Source: a bacterium (GTDB lineage: Bacteria; Patescibacteriota; Minisyncoccia; Minisyncoccales; JAUYFS01). From it: a DNA stretch of 52,590 nt. The stretch lies in NCBI GenBank assembly GCA_030689665.1, contig JAUYFS010000014.1:1-52590 (forward strand), given 5' to 3'. The stretch's first letter is position 1; each line of letters opens with the position of its first letter. Shown here piece by piece: positions 7,313 to 49,845 of this stretch. Position numbers and translations under genes: made by a program. The notes below the pieces were generated by a model. That model ran no database searches. It had not been told where the DNA came from and worked only from the letters and a program-made list of their open reading frames with translations.

Positions 7313-8038
7313 ATGTTTGTTAATTATAGAACTCAGGCGATTGTTTTGGGCCGCAAAAATATCAACGAGGCTGATTCTTTGGTTTATTTTTTTACTAAAG
7401 AATTTGGTTTGCTTAAAATTTTGGGAAAATCAATCCGCAAAATTTCCTCAAAATTAAAATCCGCAGCGCGAGATTTTAATTTTGAGGAAATTGAATTTGT
7501 TCAGGGCAAGAAATTCAAGATTTTAACCGATATTTATTCTGTAAAAAAATTGCCCGAAATAAACAAGGACTTGAAAAAGAAAAAACTTTGCCATTTTATC
7601 TGCGATTTTTTTATAGAATTTGTCAGAGAGCCGGAAAAAGACCTGAAATTGTGGAACCTTTTGGCTTTTTCTTTGCAAATGACAAGGGACTGGGATAAAA
7701 ACCTATATTTGGTTTATCAGTTTTTTATTTGGAATTTTTTGAAAAACATTGGGTTTGGCATTGATTTTGAAAAATGTTTTAATTGCCATAAAAAATTAAA
7801 ACCCCAGAAAAGTTTTTATTTTACCAAAAAGGGCATTGTTTGCGATTTTTGCGAAGGGAAATCTGTTGCCGGGAAAAAAATAAAAATAAGCCAGATTACG
7901 CTTAAAATTTTAAGGACAATACAAAAAAAAGACATAAAACTTTTAAGCCGCTTGAAGGCGGCTGATAAAAATATTTTGAAAGAAATGGATTTAATGACAG
8001 CTTATTACCTTGGAATTATTCGCAAAAACGAACAATAA
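7313..8038 (+). CDS. recO: DNA repair protein RecO
   Basis: The N-terminal OB-fold pattern (AIVLGRKNINEADSLVYFFTKEFGLLKILGKS) and the C-terminal CxxC...CxxC zinc motif are typical of RecO. Confidence 0.8.
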   Translation: MFVNYRTQAIVLGRKNINEADSLVYFFTKEFGLLKILGKSIRKISSKLKSAARDFNFEEIEFVQGKKFKILTDIYSVKKLPEINKDLKKKKLCHFICDFFIEFVREPEKDLKLWNLLAFSLQMTRDWDKNLYLVYQFFIWNFLKNIGFGIDFEKCFNCHKKLKPQKSFYFTKKGIVCDFCEGKSVAGKKIKISQITLKILRTIQKKDIKLLSRLKAADKNILKEMDLMTAYYLGIIRKNEQ

Positions 8039-8049
8039 TCCGAAAACCA

Positions 8050-8084
8050 AAAGCTGTCGTGGGGTCTGACCCCACGACAGCTTT
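8050..8084 (+). terminator. Terminator-like perfect hairpin after recO, same family as 7262-7292
   Basis: AAAGCTGTCGTGGGGTC / GACCCCACGACAGCTTT. It has the same AGCTG ends and GGTCTGACC centre as the ileS hairpin. Confidence 0.6.
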
Positions 8085-8121
8085 CTCTATAATTCATACT
8101 ATATACTACATACTTCTTTCC

Positions 8122-8150
8122 TTGACAAATACAAACTAATTTGCTAATAT
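8122..8150 (+). promoter_or_regulatory. Sigma-70-like promoter (TTGACA-17-TAATAT)
   Basis: TTGACA at 8122-8127, a 17-nt spacer, and TAATAT at 8145-8150. Confidence 0.6.
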
Positions 8151-8156
8151 ATAAAT

Positions 8157-8475
8157 AGAGAGGAGTTAAATAAATAATAGTTTAGATAGCGTTTTTCCGG
8201 TTCTACAATTTTAGAAAAGAACTGGACTCAAGTAATCTTGAGAACTATCTAAACACTTAATAAGGAGGAATATATGGGTTGTCATTCCTCATGATATTAA
8301 AAGTTTTAATATCGTTGCAGGACAACCCGAATATGGAGAGCGAGAAAAAATCTTTCCAGATGAAGCGGTTCATCTCAAATAAATCGCGCATCTGAAATCT
8401 ATTTGAAAGATTTCCTTTTTCCTCTCCTTTTCCTTTTTTATACAAAGTTTTCAGGGGCCCGTCCTCTGATTTTTT
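8157..8475 (+). ncRNA. Candidate roughly 320-nt structured RNA with its own promoter and terminator (unclassified). Contains a 6-codon uORF.
   Basis: Three-way junction: P1 8180-8189/8245-8254, P2 8197-8204/8218-8225 (with one G-U valid only on +), P3 8227-8232/8237-8242. AAGGAGG at 8262-8268 lies 5 nt before ATG 8274 (MGCHSS, stop at 8292-8294) and is pairable with ATTCCTC at 8284-8290. The terminator TCAGGGG-CCCGT-CCTCTGA (8451-8469) is followed by TTTTTT. Confidence 0.45.
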
Positions 8476-8520
8476 GATTGACAAAAAGGAGAAATTTTTT
8501 ATTCTTTTTATTCTTTTAAT

Positions 8521-8674
8521 TTTTCATTTTACATTTTTCGCTTTGCATTTTACATTTCTTTTGTTTTGCGTTTTTCGTTTTACATTTTGCGTTTTGACTT
8601 TTGACATTTAAGTTTATGCTTCATGCTTTATGCTTCATGTTTCAGGTTTCATGTTTCATGCTTCATGATTTTCT
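8521..8674. repeat. Array of 22 consecutive degenerate heptads (T-tract heptads, then ATGCTTC/ATGTTTC heptads)
   Basis: Manual phasing gives ttttcat|tttacat|ttttcgc|tttgcat|tttacat|...|cttcatg|ctttatg|cttcatg|tttcagg|tttcatg|tttcatg|cttcatg with no slip in the 7-nt register. Confidence 0.75.
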
Positions 8675-8677
8675 GCC

Positions 8678-8706
8678 TTGACACAAAAAATTTCTTTTGT
8701 TAAGGT
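8678..8706 (+). promoter_or_regulatory. Possible rpsL operon promoter (TTGACA-17-TAAGGT)
   Basis: TTGACA at 8678-8683. The -10 candidate TAAGGT at 8701-8706 is imperfect. Confidence 0.4.
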
Positions 8707-8740
8707 AAAAATAATTAGCGCATAAGCGCTGTTTTAAATT

Positions 8741-8810
8741 AAATTCACCTTGTTAAATACTGCTTCGCAGTAATTTCGCTGAAAGCGAAATTATTTAACA
8801 GGGTAAAAAA
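8741..8810 (+). promoter_or_regulatory. rpsL 5' leader hairpin, a diverged member of the anti-SD/SD palindrome family
   Basis: ACCTTGTTAAATA (8747-8759) pairs with TATTTAACAGGGT (8792-8804) with one T-G pair. It encloses two small hairpins (CTGC-TTCG-CAG; AATTTCGCT-GAA-AGCGAAATT). The right arm ends 7 nt before ATG 8812. Confidence 0.55.
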
Positions 8811-8811
8811 T

Positions 8812-9243
8812 ATGCCGACAATTCACCAGTTAATGAAAAGGCCAAGAAAACAAATGAAAAAGCGCCACAAAGCGCCTGCTTTGTCATTTGCTTTTAATGT
8901 TTTAAAAAACAGGCCAAAAGATTTTCCTTCTTCTTTTAAAAGAGGCGTTTGCGTCAAGGTTTTTACCATGACTCCGAAAAAACCAAACTCTGCTTTGAGA
9001 AAAGTGGCAAGGGTCCGTTTAACAAATGGAATGGAGGTTACTGCCTATATTCCGGGAGTGGGACATAATCTTCAAGAGCACGCGGTTGTTTTAATCAGGG
9101 GCGGAAGGGTTAAAGATTTGCCTGGCGTCAGATACCACATTGTCAGGGGAATTTTGGACACTTCCGGAGTTGAAGGAAGAAAAACATCAAGAAGTTTATA
9201 CGGCGCCAAAAAAGGCAAAGGCGGCGGTTCGGCTAAAAAATAA
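8812..9243 (+). CDS. rpsL: 30S ribosomal protein S12
   Basis: MPTIHQL...[16 protein letters not shown]...[10 protein letters not shown] are classic S12 blocks. Confidence 0.97.
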
Positions 9244-9252
9244 AAAATTATT

Positions 9253-9723
9253 ATGGCAAGAAGAAAAAAAGCAGTAAAAAGAGACATAACTCCAGACCCG
9301 GTTTTTAACAGCGTCAGGGTTGAAAAGTTTATAAACCATATAATGGAAAAAGGGAAAAAATCCACAGCAAGGACGATTTTTTACAATGCTTGCGAAATAA
9401 TCAAAAACAAATCCAAGAAAGACCCTCTGGATGTTTTTGAAGAGGCCTTGAAAAATGTTGCGCCAATAATGGAGGTTAAGGCAAAAAGAATCGGCGGAGC
9501 CAAATATCAGGTGCCGATTGAGGTTAGGCCGGAAAGAAAAATAAGTTTGTCTATGAGATGGATAATCGGAGCTGCCAGAGCCAAAAAAGGAAAACCAATG
9601 CGAGAAAAATTAGCTCAGGAACTTTTGGAGGCCTCACAAAACACGGGAACTGCCGTTAAAAAGAAAGAAACAATGCACAGAATGGCAGAGGCGAACAAGG
9701 CGTTCGCGCATTTTGCGAGATAA
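9253..9723 (+). CDS. rpsG: 30S ribosomal protein S7
   Basis: PDPVFNS...KAKRIGGAKYQVPIEVRPERK...MHRMAEANKAFAHF. Confidence 0.97.
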   Translation: MARRKKAVKRDITPDPVFNSVRVEKFINHIMEKGKKSTARTIFYNACEIIKNKSKKDPLDVFEEALKNVAPIMEVKAKRIGGAKYQVPIEVRPERKISLSMRWIIGAARAKKGKPMREKLAQELLEASQNTGTAVKKKETMHRMAEANKAFAHFAR

Positions 9724-9765
9724 AAAAACGCAAAGCGCAAAGCGAAAAACGAAAAATAAATAAAA
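9724..9765. repeat. Heptad repeat array (aaaaacg|caaagcg|caaagcg|aaaaacg|aaaaata|aataaaa) in the rpsG-fusA spacer
   Basis: 7-nt register verified by hand. It is the complement orientation of the cgttttt/cgctttg heptads at 8535-8600. Confidence 0.6.
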
Positions 9766-9774
9766 TAATTTAAA

Positions 9775-11880
9775 ATGGACAGGGCTTATCCTTTGGATAA
9801 ATACAGAAACATTGGAATTATCGCGCACATTGACGCCGGGAAAACAACAACAACGGAGAGGGTTTTGTTTTACACCGGAATTTCTCACAAAATCGGCGAG
9901 GTTCACGACGGAGAAGCGATTATGGATTGGATGGAACAGGAAAGAGAAAGAGGGATTACAATTACCGCCGCAGCGACAACTTGTTTTTGGACGCCAAGCG
10001 ATTTGGAAAAGAAAAAAGAAAACGAATTCAGAATAAATATCATTGACACTCCGGGACATATTGATTTTACGGTTGAAGTCCAGAGGTCTTTAAGAGTTTT
10101 GGACGGAGCTGTTGTCGTTTTTGACGGGGTTGCGGGCGTGGAACCGCAATCAGAAACAGTTTGGCGCCAGGCGGACAAGTTTGGCGTGCCAAGAGTTTGT
10201 TTTATAAACAAACTTGACAGGATGGGCGCTGATTTTGAAAAAAGCGCTGATTCAATTTTTAAAAAATTAACACCCTACGCAATAATTTTACAGCTTCCGA
10301 TTGGAAGTGAGGAAAAGTTTAGCGGAATTATAGACCTTTTGAAAATGAAGGCGTTGTATTTTGAGGGCGAAAAAGGAGAAAACATGATTGAAAAAGAAAT
10401 TCCGCAAGAACTTCAAATTAAAGCTGAAAAATTCAGGGAAAAAATGGTTGAGAAAATCGCGGGAGAAGACGAAAATTTAACAAGCAAATTTTTGAAAGGC
10501 GAGGAAATTTCCAAGGAAGAACTTAAAAAAACTCTCAGGAAAGCTGTTTTGAACAATAAATTAAATCCAATTCTTTGCGGCTCTTCTTTAAAAAATAAAG
10601 GAGTTCAACTAATGCTTGACGCTGTTTGCGATTATTTGCCAAGTCCGGTTGATTTGCCGCCCGCGCAGGGAACCAATCCTCAAACAGGAGAAATTGTTGA
10701 GAGAAAAGCGTCTGACGACGAGCCGTTCGCTGCCTTGGCTTTTAAAATCGCTTCAGACCCTTTTGTCGGGAGTTTAACCTATTTCAGGGTTTATTCGGGA
10801 AAATTAGTCAAAGGTTCTTATGTTGTAAACTCAACTACCGGCGGAAAAGAAAGAATAGGCAGAATTATAAGAATGCACGCAAACCACAGAGAAGAAGTTG
10901 ATGATGTTTTTGCCGGCGATTTGGCTGCGACAATCGGCATGAAAAATACCAGAACGGGAAACACGCTTTGCGACGAAAACAATCCGATTGTTTTGGAACA
11001 GATTTCTTTTCCAGAGCCGGTTATTTCAATTAAAATTGAACCCAAGACAAAAGCTGACCAGGAAAAATTGGGAACATCTTTGAAAAAATTGTCAGACGAA
11101 GACCCGACCTTCAGGGTTTCCACAAATCAGGAAACCGGAGAAACGATAATTTCCGGAATGGGAGAATTACATCTGGAAATTATCGCTGACAGGTTAAAAA
11201 GAGAGTTTAATGTTGACGCTGCCGTGGGAAGACCGCAAGTTGCTTATAAAGAAACAATCAAAGAGTCAATCCAGTCAGAAGGAAAATACATCAGGCAGTC
11301 AGGAGGCAGGGGCCAATACGGGCATGTAAAAATAAGAATTGAGCCAATGCCAAGAGGCAAGGGTTTTGAATTTGTTAATGAAATCAGGGGAGGAATTATT
11401 CCCGGTGAATTTATTCCGCCGGTTGAAAAAGGAGTAAAAGAAGCGATGGACAAGGGAATTTTGGCCGGATTTCCCATGGTTGATATGAAGGTTAGTTTGT
11501 ATGACGGTTCGTTCCACGAGGTTGATTCTTCTGAAATCGCTTTTAAAATCGCCGCCAGCCAAGCGTTGCAAGACGGCGCGAAAAAGTGCAAACCAATTCT
11601 TTTGGAGCCGATTATGAGATTGGAAGTCATTGTGCCTGAGGAATACTTTGGAGACATTATCGGCGATTTGAGTTCCCGCAGAGGGAAAATTGAGGAAACT
11701 TTTGACAGATTGAATTTGAAAGTTATTGACGCTTTTGTTCCTTTGGTGGAAATGTTCGGATATGCGACAATTATAAGGTCAATTACTCAAGGCAGAGGAA
11801 CATTTACCATGGAATTTGACCAATATCAGGAGACTCCCGGAAATATCGCCCAAGAAATTATTGAAGGCAAAAGAAAATAA
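9775..11880 (+). CDS. fusA: Elongation factor G
   Basis: [29 protein letters not shown] and NKLDR GTPase motifs; 701 aa. Confidence 0.97.
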
Positions 11881-11889
11881 TTTAATAAT

Positions 11890-12162
11890 ATGGATTTAAA
11901 AACCTTAAGAGACATAATTGAGAAAGATGAGGGCAAAATATTTGTTTATGAAGAAGGCAAACCGCTTTTGGTTTTGATGAATTTTGATGTTTATAAAAAA
12001 TTAGTGAATAAAAATTTTAAAGAAGATGAAAAAGAAAAACCAGCGGGGAAAAGCATTGTTGATTTGATAACAAGAAAGGAAGAAAAACCGGAAAAGCCGG
12101 AAATTCAAGAAGAAACTAATGAAACAGGAGAAGATTTGGATATAGATGATTTGAACCTTTAA
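11890..12162 (+). CDS. Small acidic-tailed protein with a Phd/YefM-antitoxin-like N-terminal domain, inserted between fusA and tuf
   Basis: LKTLRDIIEKDEGKIFVYEEGKPLLVLMNFDVYKKL resembles the Phd/YefM beta-alpha N-domain. The C-terminal half is an E/K/P-rich disordered tail ending DLDIDDLNL. There is no adjacent toxin ORF. Confidence 0.4.
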   Translation: MDLKTLRDIIEKDEGKIFVYEEGKPLLVLMNFDVYKKLVNKNFKEDEKEKPAGKSIVDLITRKEEKPEKPEIQEETNETGEDLDIDDLNL

Positions 12163-12170
12163 TGTATTAA

Positions 12171-12238
12171 CCCGCCTCCGCCCCTAAGGGCTTCGGCGAG
12201 GCAAAGCCCGCCTCCGCCCCTGAGGGCTTCGGCGAGGC
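12171..12238. repeat. Tandem duplication of a 32-nt GC-rich palindromic unit (REP-like)
   Basis: CCCGCCTCCGCCCCTAAGGGCTTCGGCGAGGC (12171-12202), AAAG, then the same unit with one A-to-G change (12207-12238). Confidence 0.8.
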
Positions 12239-12242
12239 GATG

Positions 12243-12271
12243 TTGACAAAAAACTTTATTTTCCTTATTAT
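12243..12271 (+). promoter_or_regulatory. tuf promoter (TTGACA-17-TATTAT)
   Basis: TTGACA at 12243-12248, a 17-nt spacer, and TATTAT at 12266-12271. Confidence 0.6.
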
Positions 12272-12298
12272 TACTTTTAACACTTTGTTTTTTAAAAA

Positions 12299-12344
12299 AT
12301 TTACCCTCCCAAATTTTTCTACAAAAAACTTAGGAGGGTGAAAA
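12299..12344 (+). repeat. Anti-SD/SD palindromic element, short form (copy A). No canonical ATG follows.
   Basis: TTACCCTCCCAAATTTTT-CTAC-AAAAAACTTAGGAGGGTG. A possible TTG-initiated 16-codon uORF lies at 12347-12397. Confidence 0.7.
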
Positions 12345-12420
12345 GGTTGAAAAAAGAGCTTTGTTTCTCAATTTTTAAGGAATTGGGAGCAGGATAAAAA
12401 AATAATTAAAATTAATAATT

Positions 12421-12473
12421 AATAAATTCACCCTCCAAAATTTTTCTGCGAAAAACTTAGGAGGGTAAAAAAA
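12421..12473 (+). repeat. Anti-SD/SD palindromic element, short form (copy B), providing the tuf RBS
   Basis: AATAAATTCACCCTCCAAAATTTTTCTGCGAAAAACTTAGGAGGGTAAAAAAA. It is 53/53 identical to 43949-44001 and ends 2 nt before the tuf ATG. Confidence 0.85.
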
Positions 12474-12475
12474 AT

Positions 12476-13675
12476 ATGGCAGAAAAAGAAAAATTTGAAA
12501 GGAGTAAGTTGCATGTTAATGTCGGAACCATTGGCCATGTTGACCATGGAAAAACCACATTAACCGCGGCAATTCTAAAAGCCCTGAAATTAAAAGGTTT
12601 TAAGGCCTCAGAAAAATCAGTAGACCAGATTGACGGCACACCGGAAGAAAGAGCAAGGGGAATTACCATTGCTATTTGTCATGTGGAATATGAAAGCGAC
12701 AAAAGGCACTATGCTCACATTGATTGTCCGGGACACGCTGATTACATTAAGAACATGATTACCGGCGCTGCCCAGATGGACGGAGCGGTTTTGGTGGTCT
12801 CTGCCGCTGATGGTCCTATGCCGCAGACAAGAGAGCACATTCTTTTGGCAAGGCAGGTAGGAGTTCCGGCGCTAGTTGTTTTCTTAAATAAAGTTGACCA
12901 GGTTGATGACCTGGAACTGATTGATTTGGTTGAATCAGAAGTTAGGGAATTACTGAAAAAATATGAATTCCCCGGGGATGAAATTCCCATTATTCGCGGT
13001 TCAGCCCTTAAGGCCTTAGACGCGACTGTTGCTGACGATGAAGCGCTAAAACCAATTTATCAATTGGTAGAAGCCATAGACAACCACATTCCCGACCCAA
13101 AAAGAGACACTGAAAAGCCGTTTTTGATGGCTATTGAAGATGTCTTTTCCATAGAAGGGCGCGGAACAGTGGTCACGGGCAGAATTGAGAGAGGGATTGT
13201 AAAAGCCAACGAAGAAGTGGAAATGGTTGGTTTGAGAGATACCCAGAAAACAACCGCAGTTTCAATTGAAATGTTCAACAAGATTTTAGACGAAGGAAGA
13301 GCAGGTGAAAACGTTGGAATTCTTTTGAGAGGTTTGAAAAAAGAGGACGTGGAAAGAGGACAAGTTTTGGCAAAACCAGGGTCAATCACTCCCCACACAG
13401 ATTTTGAAGCGCAGGTTTATATTTTGGGCAAAGAAGAAGGCGGACGCCACACCCCGTTTTTCAACGGGTATAAACCCCAGTTTTACATCAGAACGACTGA
13501 TGTTACCGGCGATGTAGTTTTGCCGGAAGGAACAGAAATGGTTATGCCGGGCGACACGGTTAATTTGAAAATTAAATTGTTAAAACCGATTGCCATGGAA
13601 GAGCAGTTAAGATTTGCTATCAGAGAGGGCGGAAAGACAGTCGGCGCAGGGGTTGTCACAAAGATTACCAAATAA
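12476..13675 (+). CDS. tuf: Elongation factor Tu
   Basis: [26 protein letters not shown]; 399 aa. Confidence 0.98.
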
Positions 13676-14092: not shown

Positions 14093-14167
14093 GCTATAAC
14101 CTAACGGATATATCGAACTAATGTTCGCTATAACCTAACGGATATATCGAACTAATGTTCGCTATAA
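14093..14167. repeat. Perfect 34-nt tandem direct repeat, 2.2 copies, in the rpsJ-rplC spacer
   Basis: GCTATAACCTAACGGATATATCGAACTAATGTTC at 14093-14126 and 14127-14160, then the partial unit GCTATAA. Each unit contains the hairpin CGAAC-TAAT-GTTCG. Confidence 0.9.
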
Positions 14168-18649: not shown

Positions 18650-18886
18650 ATGGAAACCAAAGAAATCAGATTTAAAAAAGACGATGAATTGAAAGCGATA
18701 ATTTTGAAAATGAAAGAAAAATTGCGCCAGCTTAAATTTGACCTTGGCGTCGGGAAATTAAAAAACGCAAGAGAAATTAAAGAGACAAAAAAATTAAGAA
18801 GCAGGATTTTAACGATTTTAAATGAAAGAAAAAAAGATACCAAGCCCTCAAAAATTTTTCCACAAAAAATTCAGGAGGATAAATAA
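18650..18886 (+). CDS. rpmC: 50S ribosomal protein L29
   Basis: Position between L16 and S17, with the L29 helical pattern (ELKAIILKMKEKLRQLKFDL...NAREIKETKK). Confidence 0.88.
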   Translation: METKEIRFKKDDELKAIILKMKEKLRQLKFDLGVGKLKNAREIKETKKLRSRILTILNERKKDTKPSKIFPQKIQEDK

Positions 18887-20618: not shown

Positions 20619-20628
20619 GGCGGGAAAA

Positions 20629-20660
20629 TAAAAAATCAAAAATCAAAAATCAAAATAACA
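20629..20660. repeat. TCAAAAA heptad repeats in the rpsN-rpsH spacer
   Basis: TC dinucleotides at 20636, 20643 and 20650 give an exact 7-nt period within an A-rich tract. It is preceded by GTAGGGCGGGA, a half-site of the REP family. Confidence 0.55.
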
Positions 20661-20696
20661 AATTAAAATTCCAAAACATTTAAATTTCATCAAAAT

Positions 20697-21705: not shown

Positions 21706-22107
21706 ATGGCAAACCACGCAAAAGAAAAAATTGTTAAGAGGCAAAGAAGAGCGCGAAGAATAAAAGCGAAAATTCTTAATATAAAGAAAAAAACAGCCGG
21801 TAAAATCAGGTTGACTGTTTTTAGGTCAAACAAGCATATTTATACCCAGTTAATTGACAATGATAGCAGAAAAACAATTGCCGCCGCTCAGGATAAGGAA
21901 ATCGCAAAGAAAGATTTAGAAAGCGCGATAAAAGAGAAAAAATTAAGCTCAAAAATAGCCATGGCTTATTTGGTTGGAAAATTAATTGCCGAAAAATCAA
22001 TGAAGAAAAAAATTAAAGAAATAGTTTTTGACCGCAGAGGTTATAAATATCATGGAAGAATCAAGGCCTTGGCAGACGGAGCAAGGGAACAAGGATTAAA
22101 ATTTTAA
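21706..22107 (+). CDS. rplR: 50S ribosomal protein L18
   Basis: RLTVFRSNKHIYTQLIDN...FDRRGYKYHGRIKALADGAREQGLKF. Confidence 0.96.
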   Translation: MANHAKEKIVKRQRRARRIKAKILNIKKKTAGKIRLTVFRSNKHIYTQLIDNDSRKTIAAAQDKEIAKKDLESAIKEKKLSSKIAMAYLVGKLIAEKSMKKKIKEIVFDRRGYKYHGRIKALADGAREQGLKF

Positions 22108-22111
22108 AAAT

Positions 22112-22663
22112 ATGATAAACAAAGAGAAAAAAACATTTAGAAAAACAGGAGGAAGAGAATTTAAAAAAGACGACGGTTTTGACTCCAAGCTTTTGGATTT
22201 GGCGCGGGTAACGAGAGTCACTGGCGGCGGGAAAAAACTTAGTTTCAGAGCCACTGTTGTTGTCGGCGACAAAAAAGGAAAGGTTGGCGTTGGCATTTCC
22301 AAGGGCCTTGATGTTTCTCAGTCCATAGAAAAAGCGACAAGAGACGCAAAAAGAAACTTGATTAAAGTTCCGATTATTGACGGCACAATTCCCCACGAAG
22401 TGACCGCTAAATTTGGCGCGGCAAGAATTTTACTAAGGCCGCAAAGAAAAGGAAGAGGTTTGGTCGCCGGCGGAACCGTAAGAGCGATTTGCGATTTGGT
22501 TGGGATTAAAGATATTTCGTCAAAGGTTCTTTCAAAAACAAAGAATAAACTGAATAACGCTCGAGCGACAATTATTGCTTTATCCAGCTTTCGCCAAGCT
22601 CGTCAAAATAAAAAAGAAAACATTAAGGAAAGCATTGAAGAAATAGAAGCGCCAGAAAAATAA
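22112..22663 (+). CDS. rpsE: 30S ribosomal protein S5 (with a C-terminal extension)
   Basis: VTRVTGGGKKLSFRATVVVGDKKGKVGVGISKG...LRPQRKGRGLVAGG. Confidence 0.96.
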   Translation: MINKEKKTFRKTGGREFKKDDGFDSKLLDLARVTRVTGGGKKLSFRATVVVGDKKGKVGVGISKGLDVSQSIEKATRDAKRNLIKVPIIDGTIPHEVTAKFGAARILLRPQRKGRGLVAGGTVRAICDLVGIKDISSKVLSKTKNKLNNARATIIALSSFRQARQNKKENIKESIEEIEAPEK

Positions 22664-22664
22664 A

Positions 22665-22775
22665 TTTACCCTCCCAAATTTTTGACCGGGAGGATTAAAA
22701 CCAGACGATGACGTTTAATAAATAAAAATTAACACCCTTACGTTTTTAGAAAAACCAAAAATTTGGGAGGGTAAA
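22665..22775 (+). repeat. Anti-SD/SD palindromic element, long form (copy C). It fills the position where rpmD (L30) normally sits.
   Basis: The 19-nt arms TTTACCCTCCCAAATTTTT (22665-22683) and AAAAATTTGGGAGGGTAAA (22757-22775) are perfect reverse complements, with a 73-nt loop. Confidence 0.9.
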
Positions 22776-22780
22776 AAATC

Positions 22781-23212
22781 ATGCAAATTCATCAATTAAA
22801 GCCCAAAAAACTTTTAAAAAAGAAGAAAAGAATAGGAAGAGGAGGTAAAAAAGGAACTTATAGCGGCCGCGGCGGAAAAGGACAAACAGCAAGAGCCGGC
22901 AGAAAAATGCAGCCGATTATAAGAGAATTGATTAAAAAATACCCGAAGTTAAGGGGTTATAGATTTAAAAATTTTGGCAAAAATATAAAAACGATTAGTT
23001 TGGATGTTTTAGAAAAAAATTTTCAGGAAAACGAACTGGTTAGTCCCGCTGTTTTGATTGAGAAAAAGTTGATTAGGCGTTATAAAGGAAATGTGCCGGA
23101 GATTAAGATTTTAGGAAGTGGCAAACTGACAAAAAAATTAGCCATTGAAGGTTGCATTTTTTCCAAAAAGGCGCTGGAATTGGCGAAAAAATTAAAGTGT
23201 GAAATTAAATGA
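22781..23212 (+). CDS. rplO: 50S ribosomal protein L15
   Basis: KKRIGRGGKKGTYSGRGGKGQTARAG. Confidence 0.95.
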   Translation: MQIHQLKPKKLLKKKKRIGRGGKKGTYSGRGGKGQTARAGRKMQPIIRELIKKYPKLRGYRFKNFGKNIKTISLDVLEKNFQENELVSPAVLIEKKLIRRYKGNVPEIKILGSGKLTKKLAIEGCIFSKKALELAKKLKCEIK

Positions 23213-24495
23213 TTAAAGAAGGAATAGATATTTTGATTAAAACCTTTAAATTCAGGGATTTAAGAAACAAAATTTTTTTTGTTCTTGGAATTTTGATTGT
23301 TTTCCGTTTGCTTACAAATATACCCATTCCCGGAGTTGATGTTGTGGCGTTGAGAAGTTTTTTTGCTTCAAGCCAATTATTCGGTTTGATGAATCTATTT
23401 ATGGGGGGAACTTTAAAACATCTTTCAATAGCAATGCTTGGATTGGGGCCATACATCACTTCCACTATTATTTTGCAGCTTTTGACAATGATTTTTCCGC
23501 AACTGGAAAAAATGTACAAAGAGGAAGGCGAAGCCGGAAAACAGAAATTTAACCAGATATCAAGAGCCCTAACTATTCCTTTGGGAATAATTCAATCATT
23601 TGCAATGATTTCTTTGCTTCAGAGGCAGCATCTTTTATTGCCGCTGTCTCCAATTGAAATCATCAGCACAATTATGACAATTACGGCTGGAACGGTTTTT
23701 TTGATGTGGCTAGGCGAATTAATTTCAGAAAAGGGGATAAGCAATGGGGTATCTTTGCTGATTTTTGCCGGAATTGTGGCAGAATTGCCGACAAGCATTC
23801 AGCAATCGGTTTTTACTTGGACAGCGTCAAGAATTCCTTCTTATGCTTTATTTTTTGTTTTGGCAATTTTGATAATTATGGCAGTTGTTATGGTAAATGA
23901 AGCCAGAAGAAATATACCGGTTTCTTACGCCAAAAGAGTCAGGGGCTTTAAAATGTTTGGCGGAGCTTCCACTTATTTGCCGATAAACATAAATCCAGCG
24001 GGCGTTATCCCGATTATTTTTGCTTTGTCTATTTTATTGCTTCCCAATATGATGGCAACGCTTTTTGTCGGAGCTGGCGGAATTTTGACGACAATTGCGG
24101 AAACTTTAAATGGTTTAGTTTCAAATCTTTGGATATACGGAACCACTTATTTTATTTTGGTTATTTTGTTCACTTATTTTTACACGGCAGTTACCTTTGA
24201 CCCGAAATCAATTTCCGAGAATTTGCAAAAAGCTGGCGGTTTTATTCCGGGAATCAGGCCAGGCAGGTCAACAGCTGAATTTTTGACAAGGATTTTAAAC
24301 AGAATTTTATTGATTGGCTCCTTGTTCTTGGGTTCAATCGCGATAATGCCGTATATTGTAAGGGGAATTACCGGAATTCAGACATTTGAGTTTTTAATAG
24401 GAGGAACAGCTTTGCTCATCGTTGTCAGTGTTGTTCTTGAATTGGTAAGGCAGATAAAAGCCCAGCTCCAAATGAGGGAGTATGATAATTATTAA
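23209..24495 (+). CDS. secY: Preprotein translocase subunit SecY
   Basis: Ten-TM pattern: IPIPGVD, LGLGPYITSTIILQLL, GELISEKGISNGVSLLIFAGI. ATGA overlap with rplO. Confidence 0.96.
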   Translation: MIKEGIDILIKTFKFRDLRNKIFFVLGILIVFRLLTNIPIPGVDVVALRSFFASSQLFGLMNLFMGGTLKHLSIAMLGLGPYITSTIILQLLTMIFPQLEKMYKEEGEAGKQKFNQISRALTIPLGIIQSFAMISLLQRQHLLLPLSPIEIISTIMTITAGTVFLMWLGELISEKGISNGVSLLIFAGIVAELPTSIQQSVFTWTASRIPSYALFFVLAILIIMAVVMVNEARRNIPVSYAKRVRGFKMFGGASTYLPININPAGVIPIIFALSILLLPNMMATLFVGAGGILTTIAETLNGLVSNLWIYGTTYFILVILFTYFYTAVTFDPKSISENLQKAGGFIPGIRPGRSTAEFLTRILNRILLIGSLFLGSIAIMPYIVRGITGIQTFEFLIGGTALLIVVSVVLELVRQIKAQLQMREYDNY

Positions 24496-30672: not shown

Positions 30673-31400
30673 AACAAATAATCGCAAACTGGAAAAATTA
30701 CCCCAAAAGTTTCAAAGAGGTTTTCGGATTGGCGGAAAAAATTGAAAGAAAATTGAAAGAGATTAACAACGACATTAATTTTGTTTTGTGTCCGCCAGGC
30801 GTTTTTATCAGGGATTTGGCAAAAGAATTTCCCAAAATAAATTTTGGCTCCCAAAATTTATTTTGGGAAGAAAAAAAAATCTGCACTGGAGAAATTTCCG
30901 GAAAAATGCTCAAGGATTTGGGCTGTAAATTTGCCATTGTCGGGCATTCGGAAAGAAGAAATTTTTTCAAAGAAAGCGACGAAATTATCAATAAAAAAAT
31001 AAAAATCTGCTTATCAAACAAAATTATTCCGATTTTCTGCGTTGGAGAGACATTTGAGGAAAATAAAAATCAGCAGACATTTTCAGTTCTAAAAAAACAA
31101 ATTGAAAGCGGTTTGAAAAACATCAATTTAAAAAATAAAGAAATTTTTATTGCCTATGAGCCAATTTGGTCAATAGGAACCGGAAAAGTCGCCCAAATAG
31201 AGGTTTTGAAAAATATAAGAGATTATTTAAAAGATATTGCCAATTTAAAAGGTTTCAATAAAGTAAAAATCATTTATGGCGGCAGCGTTGACGCCAAAAA
31301 TGTCGCCCAGATTTTAAACCAAGCTGGTTTTGACGGATTATTAATAGGCAAAAACTCTTTTAATTTTAAAGAGCTGGAAAAAATTTTAAATAACATTTAA
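30669..31400 (+). CDS. tpiA: Triosephosphate isomerase
   Basis: ANWKNY, VGHSERR, YEPIWSIGTG, YGGSV. Confidence 0.93.
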   Translation: MKQIIANWKNYPKSFKEVFGLAEKIERKLKEINNDINFVLCPPGVFIRDLAKEFPKINFGSQNLFWEEKKICTGEISGKMLKDLGCKFAIVGHSERRNFFKESDEIINKKIKICLSNKIIPIFCVGETFEENKNQQTFSVLKKQIESGLKNINLKNKEIFIAYEPIWSIGTGKVAQIEVLKNIRDYLKDIANLKGFNKVKIIYGGSVDAKNVAQILNQAGFDGLLIGKNSFNFKELEKILNNI

Positions 31401-31407
31401 AATAAAA

Positions 31408-31463
31408 GCATGAAGCATGAAGCATGAAACATGAAACATGGAGCATGAAACATAAAACATAAA
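31408..31463. repeat. Eight GCATGAA/ACATGAA/ACATAAA heptads, the reverse-complement orientation of the 8616-8671 array
   Basis: gcatgaa x3, acatgaa, acatgga, gcatgaa, acataaa x2, in an unbroken 7-nt register. Looser TCAATTT-type heptads follow to about 31491. Confidence 0.8.
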
Positions 31464-31563
31464 ATAATTTTCAATTTCTAATTTTCAATTTTAATTAAAT
31501 TTTCAATGAATTAATTTTCAAACAAAATAAAAAGCTTAAAAATTAAAAATTAAATATAAATAT

Positions 31564-39119: not shown

Positions 39120-39120
39120 A

Positions 39121-39229
39121 TTCACCCTCCCAAATTTTTGGGCGGCGAATTAGTCAAAAATAGCATTAAAATTAAATAACAATTAACATTCTCGCGATTT
39201 TTGGAAAGCCAAAAACTTGGGAGGGTAAA
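39121..39229 (+). repeat. Anti-SD/SD palindromic element, long form (copy D), between rpoA and rplQ
   Basis: TTCACCCTCCCAAATTTTT (39121-39139) pairs with AAAAACTTGGGAGGGTAAA (39211-39229) at 17/19 positions. The 71-nt loop is homologous to the loop of copy C. The right arm ends 3 nt before ATG 39233. Confidence 0.85.
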
Positions 39230-39232
39230 AAA

Positions 39233-39954: not shown

Positions 39955-40422
39955 ATGGAGAAAAAAATGAAATCCCGCCGCAAACTTCTTAATTTAGTAG
40001 GCGGGACCCCCGATAAATCGGGGGAAAACACAAATCTTGAATATTGCGAGGGAGTTGGCAGAAGGAAAACTTCCATTGCCAGAGTTAGAATTTATCCAAA
40101 AAAAAGAGAGAAGGATTTTTTAGTTAATGATAAAAATTTTGAAGATTATTTTAAAACCCTTGAACTTAGAAAAATTGGAGAATCTCCTTTTAAAGAGATT
40201 GGCTCTAACTTTTACACAACCGTCAAGGTAAGCGGCGGCGGCATAAGAAGCCAGGCAACTGCCTTAAAATTGGGCATTAGCAGGGCCTTGGTTGTTTTTA
40301 ACCCTGAATTTAGGCATCGTTTGAGAGCTGCTGATTATTTGACCCGCGACGCAAGAAAAAGAGAAAGGAAAAAATTCGGTTTGAAACGAGCTCGCAGGGC
40401 CCCGCAATGGAGAAAGAGATAA
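39955..40422 (+). CDS. rpsI: 30S ribosomal protein S9 with a REP-element-encoded N-terminal extension
   Basis: GVGRRKTSIARVRIYP...GGGIRSQA...LTRDARKRERKKFGLKRARRAPQWRKR. The only in-frame ATGs upstream of the S9 core are 39955 and 39967, so the REP at 39973-40024 is translated. Confidence 0.9.
   Translation: MEKKMKSRRKLLNLVGGTPDKSGENTNLEYCEGVGRRKTSIARVRIYPKKREKDFLVNDKNFEDYFKTLELRKIGESPFKEIGSNFYTTVKVSGGGIRSQATALKLGISRALVVFNPEFRHRLRAADYLTRDARKRERKKFGLKRARRAPQWRKR
39973..40024 (+). repeat. REP-like double hairpin inside the rpsI 5' coding region
   Basis: TCCCGCC (39973-39979) pairs with GGCGGGA (40000-40006). CCCCCGAT (40007-40014) pairs with ATCGGGGG (40017-40024). Confidence 0.8.
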
Positions 40423-40424
40423 TT

Positions 40425-40547
40425 CGCTCGGCAACGAACCCCGCCCTCTATCCTAAAAGTCAAAAGAAAGAAAATTAAAATATTACGGAAACACTTGGGA
40501 TATCCTCAAGAAAAAACACAGATTAGAGGGCGGGGTTGTTGCCTCGC
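40425..40547. repeat. Long GC-rich inverted repeat (~24-nt arms, 73-nt loop) downstream of rpsI
   Basis: AACCCCGCCCTCTA (40437-40450) pairs with TAGAGGGCGGGGTT (40524-40537), a perfect 14 bp. It is extended by GGCAAC/GTTGCC. The loop contains CTTGGGATATCCTCAAG. Confidence 0.75.
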
Positions 40548-40564
40548 TCCTGATATAAAAAGGT

Positions 40565-41263
40565 ATGTTAAAAGAACTTATTGATAATTTTTACAAAGAA
40601 AGAGAAAAAAATCGCCAACAGACAAAGTTTTGGATTACAGACGCTGGTCGTTGTCCGAGAATGATTTTTTTCAAATTTAAAAACGCTCCCAAAAAGGGAA
40701 TTGACCCGAGAATTCTTAGAATGTTTGACCATGGCGATTATATTCATCGCCTTATTTTGAACGCCTTGTTTAGCGTTGGCATAGTCAGGGCTTCTGAAAT
40801 TAACATACCCTCTCAAGAATTAATTTCAGGAAGAGCGGACGCGATTATAAGCGTTGGCGACGAAATGTATGTTCTGGACATCAAAAGCATGAACAGCATG
40901 GTTTTTAGGGGCTTGGAAAAACCAAAAGAAGAGAACGAGAATCAACTCCAACTTTATTTGCATTATTTCAAAATTCCCAAGGGCATTCTTTTATATGTCA
41001 ATAAAGATACCCAGGATTTAAGGGAGTTTTTTATTGAAAAAAATCAAGAAATAATTGATGCTTTATTAAAGGAATTGCAGGACTTGAAAAATAAAATAGA
41101 CAGCGACGAAACTCCTGCCGCTTTGGCTGATCGCTCAAAGAATTGGCAATGCCAGTATTGCCAATTTAAAGATATTTGTTCTTTGATAGGCGAGGATAAT
41201 TTAAGCTGGGATAGCGCCAAAAACAAAATAGAAGCCCTAGAAACTAAAAAAGAGGACCAATAA
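40565..41263 (+). CDS. Stand-alone Cas4/RecB-like PD-(D/E)XK exonuclease with a 4-Cys Fe-S cluster signature
   Basis: N-terminal Cys (DAGRCPRM), RADAI...VLDIKS, QLQLY (QxxxY), and the C-terminal CQYCQFKDIC (C-x2-C-x5-C). Confidence 0.75.
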   Translation: MLKELIDNFYKEREKNRQQTKFWITDAGRCPRMIFFKFKNAPKKGIDPRILRMFDHGDYIHRLILNALFSVGIVRASEINIPSQELISGRADAIISVGDEMYVLDIKSMNSMVFRGLEKPKEENENQLQLYLHYFKIPKGILLYVNKDTQDLREFFIEKNQEIIDALLKELQDLKNKIDSDETPAALADRSKNWQCQYCQFKDICSLIGEDNLSWDSAKNKIEALETKKEDQ

Positions 41264-43953: not shown

Positions 43954-44001
43954 ATTCACCCTCCAAAATTTTTCTGCGAAAAACTTAGGAGGGTAAAAAA
44001 A
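43949..44001 (+). repeat. Anti-SD/SD palindromic element, short form (copy E), between murA and mreB
   Basis: 53/53 identical to 12421-12473. It overlaps the murA TAA and ends 1 nt before ATG 44003. Confidence 0.85.
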
Positions 44002-49797: not shown

Positions 49798-49845
49798 ATT
49801 CACCCTCCCAAATTTTTCGCAGGAAAACTTGGGATGGTAAACAAA
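49797..49845 (+). repeat. Anti-SD/SD palindromic element, short form (copy F, right arm decayed), between mreB2 and gatC
   Basis: AAATTCACCCTCCCAAATTTTTCGCAGGAAAACTTGGGATGGTAAAC. It overlaps the mreB2 TAA and ends 2 nt before ATG 49848. Confidence 0.75.

Follow-up and report, generated by a model that had tools for sequence, protein, structure and literature searches.

Imperfect palindromes that pair Shine-Dalgarno and anti-Shine-Dalgarno arms in a Patescibacteria contig are probably recently inserted copies of a dispersed repeat

The stretch of DNA studied here (hereafter, "the window") is a single contig of 52,590 nt (52.6 kb), JAUYFS010000014.1, from a metagenome-assembled genome (MAG), and the closest named relatives of its proteins are from Patescibacteria of the Parcubacteria/Paceibacteria type. 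It carries eight related hairpins; in the mRNA, an anti-Shine-Dalgarno arm, ACCCUCC, pairs with a Shine-Dalgarno (SD) arm, GGAGGGU. We consider these hairpins to be probably (at a probability of roughly 0.7) recently inserted copies of a short DNA repeat that is an imperfect palindrome, is dispersed in many Patescibacteria lineages (the candidate phyla radiation, CPR), and is of the same kind as the repetitive extragenic palindromic sequences (REPs), the MITEs (miniature inverted-repeat transposable elements), and the Rickettsia palindromic elements (RPEs). The repeat family itself, the recent insertion and the dispersal of its copies, their hairpin potential, and the scarcity of SD sequences were all read directly from the DNA. 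An earlier reading of the window from its letters alone (the sequence-only reading) had described these palindromes as spanning the distance from an upstream stop codon to a downstream start codon and had proposed, among other explanations, that they either enforce translational coupling or are MITE-like palindromes that bring a ready-made ribosome-binding site. The second proposal fits our results, in that close relatives lack the elements at the same junctions and that the family is dispersed across Patescibacteria contigs.

Eight related hairpins in the window

Of the eight hairpins, four are short forms (39–45 nt) and two are long forms (~113 nt); the others are a variant that lacks GGAGG and a degenerate copy. 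The sequence-only reading had counted at least seven copies; all the sites it listed exist, and the degenerate copy is the eighth. The repeat unit is a 39-nt core, (T/C)ACCCTCC(C/A)AAATTTTT - loop - AAAAA(C/T)TT(A/G)GGAGGGT(G/A). When a covariance model (R1) was built from the short copies and run on the window, the short forms at positions 12299–12343, 12426–12470, 43954–43998, and 49798–49842 scored 56–66 bits (E ~1e−11 to 1e−14), and two half-elements were matched within each long form (22664–22699 and 22728–22776; 39120–39150 and 39182–39230). The long form, a conserved element of 113 nt, behaves like a dimer whose inner arms have decayed, and the variant without GGAGG (variant B) is a sister element with the same termini.

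The two long forms fill the rpsE-rplO spacer (22664–22776, plus strand) and the rpoA-rplQ spacer (39120–39230, plus strand). In the former, the outer arms at 22665–22684 and 22756–22775 lie 71 nt apart and are 100% complementary over 20 nt, so that the perfect complementarity noticed earlier holds and extends to this length. The rpsE TAA ends at 22663 and the left arm begins 1 nt later, whereas the right arm stops 5 nt before the rplO ATG at 22781; the ORF (open reading frame) ends thus confirm the placement given by the sequence-only reading. The degenerate inner arms of this copy fall within 22664–22699 and 22728–22776, and the element folds at −34.2 kcal/mol, with a z-score of −5.2 against dinucleotide shuffles. 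The arms of the second long form (39121–39141 and 39209–39229) are 90% complementary, and its fold reaches −29.8 kcal/mol.

All four short forms lie on the plus strand. One fills the murA-mreB spacer (43954–43998; 65.1 bits; −15.3 kcal/mol) and another the mreB2-gatC spacer (49798–49842; 56.2 bits; −14.8 kcal/mol), where the SD has decayed to GGGATGG. The other two are in the 5' untranslated region (5'UTR) of tuf, one directly before the gene (12426–12470; 65.1 bits) and one early in the leader (12299–12343; 66.1 bits). The 45-nt cores before mreB and before tuf score alike, at 65.1 bits each, despite the unrelated genes. A promoter-like sequence, TTGACA-17-TATTAT (12243–12271, plus strand), precedes both tuf-leader elements; it matches the consensus at 11 of 12 positions, is the best such match in 8000–13000, and is kept in the relatives L115, L116, and L117, and the early copy begins ~28 nt past its second hexamer. 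Variant B lies in the rpsL 5'UTR (8743–8809, plus strand; −24.8 kcal/mol, z-score −6.9) and has the family termini, ATTCACC...GGGTAAAA, around a different paired interior without GGAGG; the sequence-only reading had listed it as a diverged form. The degenerate copy is inside the 3' end of rpmC (18840–18884), where the minus strand reached 39.8 bits with the model and the plus strand 23.8 bits; it adds 12 residues to L29, and its GGAGGA lies ~17 nt before the rpsQ ATG. For the genes flanking the elements, Pfam confirmed S5/L15, EF-Tu, RpoA/L17, MurA/MreB, and MreB/GatC.

The stop-to-start architecture that had been claimed for every site was found in four window copies only, those before rplO, rplQ, mreB, and gatC. 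These copies begin 0–1 nt past the TAA, their paired arm ends 5–9 nt before the ATG, and the distance from GGAGGG (GGGATGG in the gatC copy) to the ATG is 7–10 nt. The copies at 12299 and 12426 and the rpsL variant are in 5'UTRs, and the rpmC copy is inside an ORF. No ORF ends at the TAA beside the tuf copy at 12426, and another in-frame TAA precedes it. Coupling of tuf to an upstream ORF or leader peptide was rejected: the sole small ORF (12338–12397) stops at least 26 nt short of the second element and shows no sequence conservation among relatives. A promoter within the long-form loops was also rejected, as a sigma-70 promoter scan found none in 22000–23500 and none inside the rpoA-rplQ element. 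Perfect palindromes in recO (21 nt; 7441–7492) and tpiA (19 nt; 30829–30869) were examined as possible copies inside ORFs and received weak model scores, but the proteins align without gaps to those of relatives, so that these palindromes are native coding sequence and not insertions.

The same sites are empty in close relatives

Syntenic contigs of relatives were reached through homologues of RplO, MreB, and EF-G, and the relatives compared share 82–96% identity in EF-G and 79–94% in MreB with the window organism. For seven of the eight window sites, at least one relative, and as a rule every relative examined, has an empty site, which amounts to a presence/absence polymorphism. The element-free counterparts of the rpoA-rplQ, murA-mreB, mreB2-gatC, rpmC-end, tuf-leader, and rpsL-leader sites are A/T-rich spacers of 5–22 nt. 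For example, the rpoA-rplQ spacer, which is 113 nt with its element in the window, is 11–13 nt without an element in L112 (MreB identity 94%; TAAATTTTAGAAAAATG) and L113 (13 nt). The murA-mreB spacer is 49 nt in the window versus 7, 14, and 22 nt, without an element, in L112, L113, and L114, and the mreB2-gatC spacer is 50 nt versus 5 nt in L113. At rpsE-rplO, the 117-nt spacer of the window corresponds to 19 nt in L110 and 9 nt in L111, whereas L108 (RplO identity 85%) has a 70-nt spacer occupied by the SD-less variant B. At the rpmC end, both the L29 alignment and the DNA comparison showed no insertion in L108, L110, or L111.

The two tuf-leader copies of the window are missing from L116 and L117, whereas in L115 (EF-G identity 96%) site 1 carries a decayed copy and site 2 is occupied by variant B. 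In the rpsL leader, where the window has variant B, L115 has the termini only and L116 has nothing. Variant B also occurs between rpsE and rplO in L109, as in L108, and a short copy of it was found in L072, an unrelated metagenome contig. At tuf-leader site 1, comparison of the filled window with the empty L116 revealed an exact 39-nt insertion (AAAAAATT-39 nt-AAAAGGTTG versus AAAAAATTAAAAGGTTG). No target-site duplication was present in this pair; the other filled/empty pairs are too diverged to judge. As judged from these alignments, the window copies are recent, lineage-specific insertions. The orthologues of the element-bearing genes in the relatives have neither an SD nor a hairpin, and the SD is therefore not required.

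The family extends across Patescibacteria

Exact-pattern scans for the left arm matched 27 stretches in the species genomes of GTDB and 79 in metagenomes, the MAG of the window itself not being among the matches. After de-duplication, 92 matches remained, of which 57 had both arms (6 in the window and 51 on other contigs). The 35 one-armed matches, many of them in non-CPR genomes, look like chance. In GTDB, the two-armed matches came from genomes named Patescibacteria, Yonath-, Wolfe-, and Doudnabacteria and from MAGs labelled Saccharibacteria; overall, the two-armed matches outside the window are mostly from named or inferred Patescibacteria, these groups and Paceibacterota. A single MAG, CAZGFB01, accounted for eight matches. 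A covariance-model search of the fetched loci (L numbers) detected further, diverged copies. In approximately 17 copies, a long ORF begins within 14 nt of GGAGGG, and eight of these also adjoin a stop codon, namely the four in the window and those of L015, L041, L042, and L089. One independent case of stop-to-start placement is in the reverse orientation (L032/L067/L095/L096). Several other copies follow stop codons in the reverse orientation, and others occur elsewhere.

At least seven copies lie in frame inside genes, a count restricted to cases confirmed by Pfam (KsgA, Fmt, PolX, and four type IV prepilins) since the ORF-context classifier over-calls "in ORF" for some copies. The copies in the housekeeping enzymes KsgA (L007:747–794), Fmt (L027:765–812), and PolX (L086:879–923) share frame and orientation and encode ..FTL(Q/P)NF..KNLGG..; the Pfam matches span the insertion, with 11–19 extra residues. 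In prepilin leaders (L040:1443–1487, L057:1238–1282, L012:6627–6671, L034:421–465, and L083:1138–1240), a 13-codon (39-nt) unit is inserted at the G|FTL(I)E cleavage motif, giving ...GFTLQNFSEKNLGGFTLIE..., that is, GFTLxNFxxKNLGGFTLIE. The left arm, GGATTTACCCTC, reads as a codon string for GFTL, and in the prepilins the Pfam N_methyl domain matches the second copy of the motif. The repeated insertion into prepilin leaders may reflect similarity to the target, or tolerance because the leader is cleaved off.

The long form was also found outside the window. Three contigs of the sample Ga0233423, with a GC content like that of the window, carry a 113-nt long form before a permease gene, a pyruvoyl-decarboxylase-like gene, and recA. 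The sequence-only reading had noted that the two long loops of the window can be aligned; in fact, the alignment covers the two long forms from end to end and takes in the three copies from this other metagenome, and the five show a mean column identity of 79% at unrelated junctions. In CAZGFB01 (L003, L005, L013, L016, and L025), AGTNNGTAG modules, which correspond to GTAG tags on the reverse strand, lie to either side of the palindrome. The window copies, flanked by TAAATT and TAAAAAA, have no GTAG tag on either strand.

Pairing and an imperfect hairpin are conserved rather than the SD

Among 44 distinct short copies, 85% of cells pair, and two-sided changes were observed in 7 of 16 pairs, above all 500 shuffles and slid controls. 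The search pattern had fixed the left arm, and the covariation analysis was for this reason redone with the diverged copies found by the model. Compensatory substitutions in the arms, which had been put forward as a check, are thus present. They include several diverged copies in which CCTCC/GGAGG has become CCGCC/GGCGG, so that the helix is kept and the SD is lost. Two mismatches in the sense orientation are also conserved, A.C in 33 of 44 copies and A.A or C.A in 31 of 44, and this pattern suggests an imperfect hairpin that may be recognized as such. Since variant B (which keeps its termini and pairing) and the CCGCC/GGCGG copies lose the SD and keep pairing, the SD is not the invariant property. 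What stays constant is the termini together with the imperfect palindrome, as in hairpins recognized by a transposase.

On the sense strand, the short forms of the window fold at −15 to −16 kcal/mol and the long forms at −30 to −34 kcal/mol, with z-scores of −2.6 to −6.9. The antisense strand folds better throughout (−20 to −22 kcal/mol for the short forms and −37 to −38 kcal/mol for the long forms), because the two conserved sense mismatches become G.U or U.U. In the predicted ensembles, the probability that GGAGGGU is unpaired was ~0.00–0.01 for rplO, rplQ, and mreB, whereas the gatC copy, with its decayed SD, reached 0.19. To mimic a ribosome, the stop codon plus 8–15 nt was forced to be single-stranded and each intercistronic copy was refolded. 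The short intercistronic hairpins dropped from ~−15 to −4/−5 kcal/mol, effectively releasing the SD, as the sequence-only reading had anticipated for a ribosome at the stop codon; in the long forms, in contrast, the SD re-paired with a degenerate inner left arm at −14 to −18 kcal/mol. The decayed inner arms are at 22688–22699, 22728–22745, 39141–39150, and 39182–39199; among them are GGGAGGAT, a possible pairing partner of the outer anti-SD arm, and CACCCTTACGTTTTT. With two alternative partners predicted for its right-arm SD, the long form may be a switch or may simply betray its dimer ancestry. A sense-strand intrinsic terminator was rejected: the plus-strand hairpins are followed by A-runs rather than U-runs, and only their minus-strand versions were flagged as terminator-like.

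An SD-poor genome and a possible course of insertion

The window has a GC content of ~35%, nearly all its genes are on the plus strand, and its GC skew is uniform. Spacers inside gene runs are mostly ≤20 nt, with an overall median of 13 nt, and the S5-L15 interval lacks the L30 gene. A 5-mer SD core is present within −20 to −4 of the start in only 5 of 53 plus-strand ATG genes, and four of these five cores are supplied by the hairpin elements, each paired with ACCCUCC. The 20 nt before the starts are A-rich and 83% A+T. The scarcity of SD cores and the A/T-rich upstream regions therefore suggest that the organism mostly initiates translation without an SD, as in Bacteroidota.

In such a genome, copies would have been inserted after AATT in very short A/T-rich stretches just before start codons. 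Because the intercistronic spacers are only 5–20 nt, an inserted copy necessarily fills the distance between stop and start codon. In the sense transcript, the hairpin would pair GGAGG with CCUCC and leave open the A-rich 7–10 nt before the AUG, as in SD-less genes. The copies that survive are probably those whose orientation and position spare expression, and their spread was possibly brought about by a single-strand transposase that recognizes hairpins. Fitness effects would be near neutral, and any effect on translation is our inference. Coupling may plausibly arise as a by-product at a maximum of four copies, those between cistrons, where a terminating ribosome may open the base of the hairpin; for the short copies, this opening would follow from the known ribosome footprint. 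Neither the three copies in 5'UTRs nor the one in rpmC can work by coupling. A permanently masked SD before tuf, a gene that must be highly expressed, speaks for a hairpin that is tolerated, is bypassed by way of the open A-rich 10 nt ahead of the AUG, or is cleaved. Coupling, RNase processing, and mRNA stabilization are all possible secondary effects.

Other explanations and points against insertion of a repeat

The coupling proposed by the sequence-only reading supposes a dedicated module in which the anti-SD arm at the upstream stop codon masks the SD, so that only a terminating ribosome frees the downstream cistron. It is physically reasonable at the four intercistronic copies: their stop distance of 0–1 nt and GGAGGG-ATG distance of 7–10 nt are what it calls for, their SD is fully paired in the ensemble (probability unpaired ~0.01), and blocking the stop codon plus 8 to 15 nt collapses the short hairpins. 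Furthermore, the geometry recurs in other lineages (at the four start- and stop-adjacent loci named above and, reversed, in the L032 group), and the sense hairpin is weaker than the antisense one in every copy. However, the structure is not conserved at the locus, as it is missing from the same junctions of close relatives, whose genes there lack an SD as well as a hairpin; three copies are 5'UTR elements for which no upstream ORF is within reach of a ribosome, and one is inside an ORF; variant B, without an SD, occupies similar sites, including rpsE-rplO in a relative; and the long-form SD, once freed, re-pairs with the inner arm. The compensatory CCGCC/GGCGG copies have no SD to mask, and numerous other copies of the family are inside ORFs or follow genes. 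As a general explanation, therefore, enforced coupling fails, and we regard a dedicated coupling module as unlikely. A compromise, to which we give a little more credit while still considering it doubtful, is a mobile coupling cassette: tiny palindromic elements would have spread across Patescibacteria and become adapted to the junctions and leaders of compact, SD-poor genomes by carrying a self-masked ribosome-binding site. The anti-SD arm would come to lie against the upstream stop codon and the SD arm 7–10 nt before the start codon, either a terminating ribosome or a double-strand RNase would unmask the SD and keep the essential downstream gene expressed, and the 13-codon unit would also be tolerated in frame in proteins such as prepilin leaders.

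RNase III processing of intercistronic sites has a precedent in phage T7, and the stems could likewise act as processing or stability hairpins: a double-strand RNase such as RNase III would cut the 16–20-bp stem, separate the cistrons, and remove the anti-SD so as to expose the SD, leaving protective stem remnants at the new ends. The stems are indeed long, nearly perfect, and located exactly between cistrons or in 5'UTRs, and cleavage would account for the expression of tuf behind a masking hairpin of −15 kcal/mol. Correia repeats are in fact cut by RNase III at their inverted repeats (PMC10969869). Nevertheless, recent insertion and the copies inside ORFs indicate that processing is not the reason for the existence of the family, and the two conserved mismatches shorten the continuous helix of the short forms. 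RNase III of this organism was not located, only 52.6 kb of its genome being covered. We consider this explanation improbable, and more so than dedicated coupling. Least probable of all, and very unlikely, is a DNA-level signal, such as a protein-binding palindrome, a sequence of the DNA-uptake type shared among CPR, or an antisense or bidirectional terminator. The conservation across distant lineages of the sequence itself, including the two mismatches, and not just of pairing would suit such a signal, as would the stronger, terminator-like minus-strand hairpin. In contrast, the density is low compared with that of known uptake sequences, the copies are always complete palindromes, and their occurrence is patchy between close relatives. 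Moreover, the sense hairpin is followed by A-runs, and there are no antisense genes to terminate, nearly all genes being on the plus strand.

Several observations also weigh against the insertion of a mobile, largely neutral repeat, which we prefer. No transposase, target duplication, or excision intermediate was identified (the window ORFs were not scanned for the Y1 transposase domain), and mobility is deduced from distribution only. The element pattern had no match in a viral contig collection, so that no carrier between lineages was seen, and a phage vehicle for the spread was rejected. Seven of the eight window copies share the same orientation, and eight of nine independent stop-to-start copies are "forward"; in addition, the SD-to-AUG spacing is 7–10 nt throughout, which is not obviously expected of a purely neutral element. 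The biases in orientation and spacing likely reflect some selection on expression. For orientation, selection against the reverse arrangement (with its stronger hairpin and U-rich tail) or strand-specific insertion can each produce the same pattern, and the two are inseparable here, given genes that are all on a single strand and a GC skew without variation. A selfish repeat would not usually keep 20 nt identical between deep lineages, and this hints that some constraint is conserved. Finally, a −15-kcal/mol hairpin that masks the SD would be expected to be costly before highly expressed tuf and ribosomal protein genes, unless it is opened or cleaved.

Significance and other spacer repeats

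CPR genomes are small and tightly packed, yet here a 39-nt palindrome has entered the leaders and junctions of core genes (tuf, rpsL, rplO, rplQ, mreB, and gatC) and the coding sequence of L29. Gene callers based on SD motifs will be misled by the element copies, and the copies are useful as markers of very recent divergence between CPR populations. With element-borne SDs being nearly the sole SDs in the genome, they also constitute a natural experiment on a masked SD in SD-independent translation. Should coupling or gating of translation by the hairpins prove real, a mobile element would here be supplying translational wiring.

Other repeats were observed in the spacers of the window. The 142-nt spacer after rpsI contains a different, GC-rich palindrome of ~120 nt (40425–40545; ~22-bp stem; 40414–40568 folds at −47.5 kcal/mol), which is likely a second family of insertion repeats; in the closest relative, L112, this spacer is 18 nt and lacks the palindrome. 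Between a 90-amino-acid ORF and the tuf promoter (12165–12238) there are two tandem copies of a 32-nt GC-rich hairpin (CCCGCCTCCGCCCCTRAGGGCTTCGGCGAGGC), where L115 and L116 have a different short hairpin. Simple repeats include the heptamers (ATGCTTC / CATGAAA)n upstream of rpsL (8514–8676) and after tpiA (31409–31464), (AAAATCA)n between rpsN and rpsH (20625–20676), and a perfect 34-nt × 2.2 repeat before rplC (14093–14167); where compared, the relatives have short spacers at these positions. Such lineage-specific spacer fillers fit a genome that gathers repeats in its few non-coding sites. Between rpsG and fusA, L116 (k141_208826) carries a gene for a 23S-rRNA-intervening-sequence protein (PF05635; 1630–2001), which is absent from the window.

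Comparison with known systems

SD occlusion as a means of translational coupling is known from the coat-replicase junction of the RNA phage MS2, from E. coli rpmI-rplT, and from synthetic cassettes, in which the downstream SD is held in a helix that upstream ribosomes can reach. The hairpins described here resemble these cases in that the downstream SD is paired in the predicted mRNA. The masking strand is within the footprint of a ribosome at the stop codon in four of the eight copies but not in the two tuf-leader copies or the rpsL copy, and the rpmC copy is located entirely inside the ORF. In contrast to the known cases, which are locus-specific and conserved, the window hairpins are copies of a recently inserted repeat that is also found where there is no upstream ORF.

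The sequence-only reading knew of no described class of element with such stop-to-start geometry; a position at or near the stop codon has, however, been published for both REPs and enterobacterial repetitive intergenic consensus (ERIC) sequences. REPs are frequently found no more than 15 nt from a stop codon, the stop codon itself can be provided by a REP terminus, some REPs are inside ORFs, and conserved mismatches in the hairpin matter for recognition (PMC12306157, PMC3733652); REPs near stop codons also stall ribosomes (PMC12306157, PMC3733652). ERICs located beside or overlapping stop codons are biased in orientation, and their folding is impeded by translating ribosomes (PMC10969869). 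As in the REP and GTAG-REP families mobilized by REP-associated tyrosine transposases (RAYTs), the present repeat is a short (~20–45 nt), imperfect palindrome in many dispersed copies, mostly between genes and co-transcribed with them, and the CAZGFB01 copies carry GTAG tags like those of GTAG-REPs (PMC3733652). Unlike REPs, the window copies have neither a GTAG nor a CGTC tag, the arms form an SD/anti-SD pair, the 5' side of genes is favored over 3' ends, and the sequence resembles neither enterobacterial nor pseudomonad REPs. No RAYT gene was found, although no genome-wide search for one was made.

With MITEs such as the Correia elements of Neisseria and the enterobacterial ERICs, the family shares terminal inverted repeats (16–20 nt here), short and long classes, intergenic insertion, and co-transcription. 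On the other hand, 39 nt is far smaller, neither a TA nor any other target duplication was found at the one clean filled/empty pair, and no parent insertion sequence is known; a 2024 review of MITEs uses neither "ribosome binding" nor "Shine-Dalgarno". The stems of Correia elements are RNase III sites, and RPEs insert in frame in ORFs (PMC10969869). Like RPEs, the present repeat occurs both between genes and in frame within them (prepilin leaders, KsgA, Fmt, PolX, and the C-terminus of L29), whereas RPEs are 100–150 bp, restricted to Rickettsia, and unrelated in sequence, the in-frame unit here being 13 codons (..FTLxNFxxKNLGG..). Rfam returned no matches for the whole window at the gathering threshold, and at a permissive E-value only sub-threshold models of microRNA precursors, small RNAs, and leaders, all far below their gathering scores; we also found no description of the family in the literature on Patescibacteria or CPR together with Shine-Dalgarno, palindromic, or MITE elements. 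The family thus appears to be an undescribed CPR repeat within the known class of small palindromic insertion repeats. Within this class, it is unusual in its SD/anti-SD arms, its preference for the 5' side of genes, its 39-nt in-frame unit, and its identity across deep CPR lineages.

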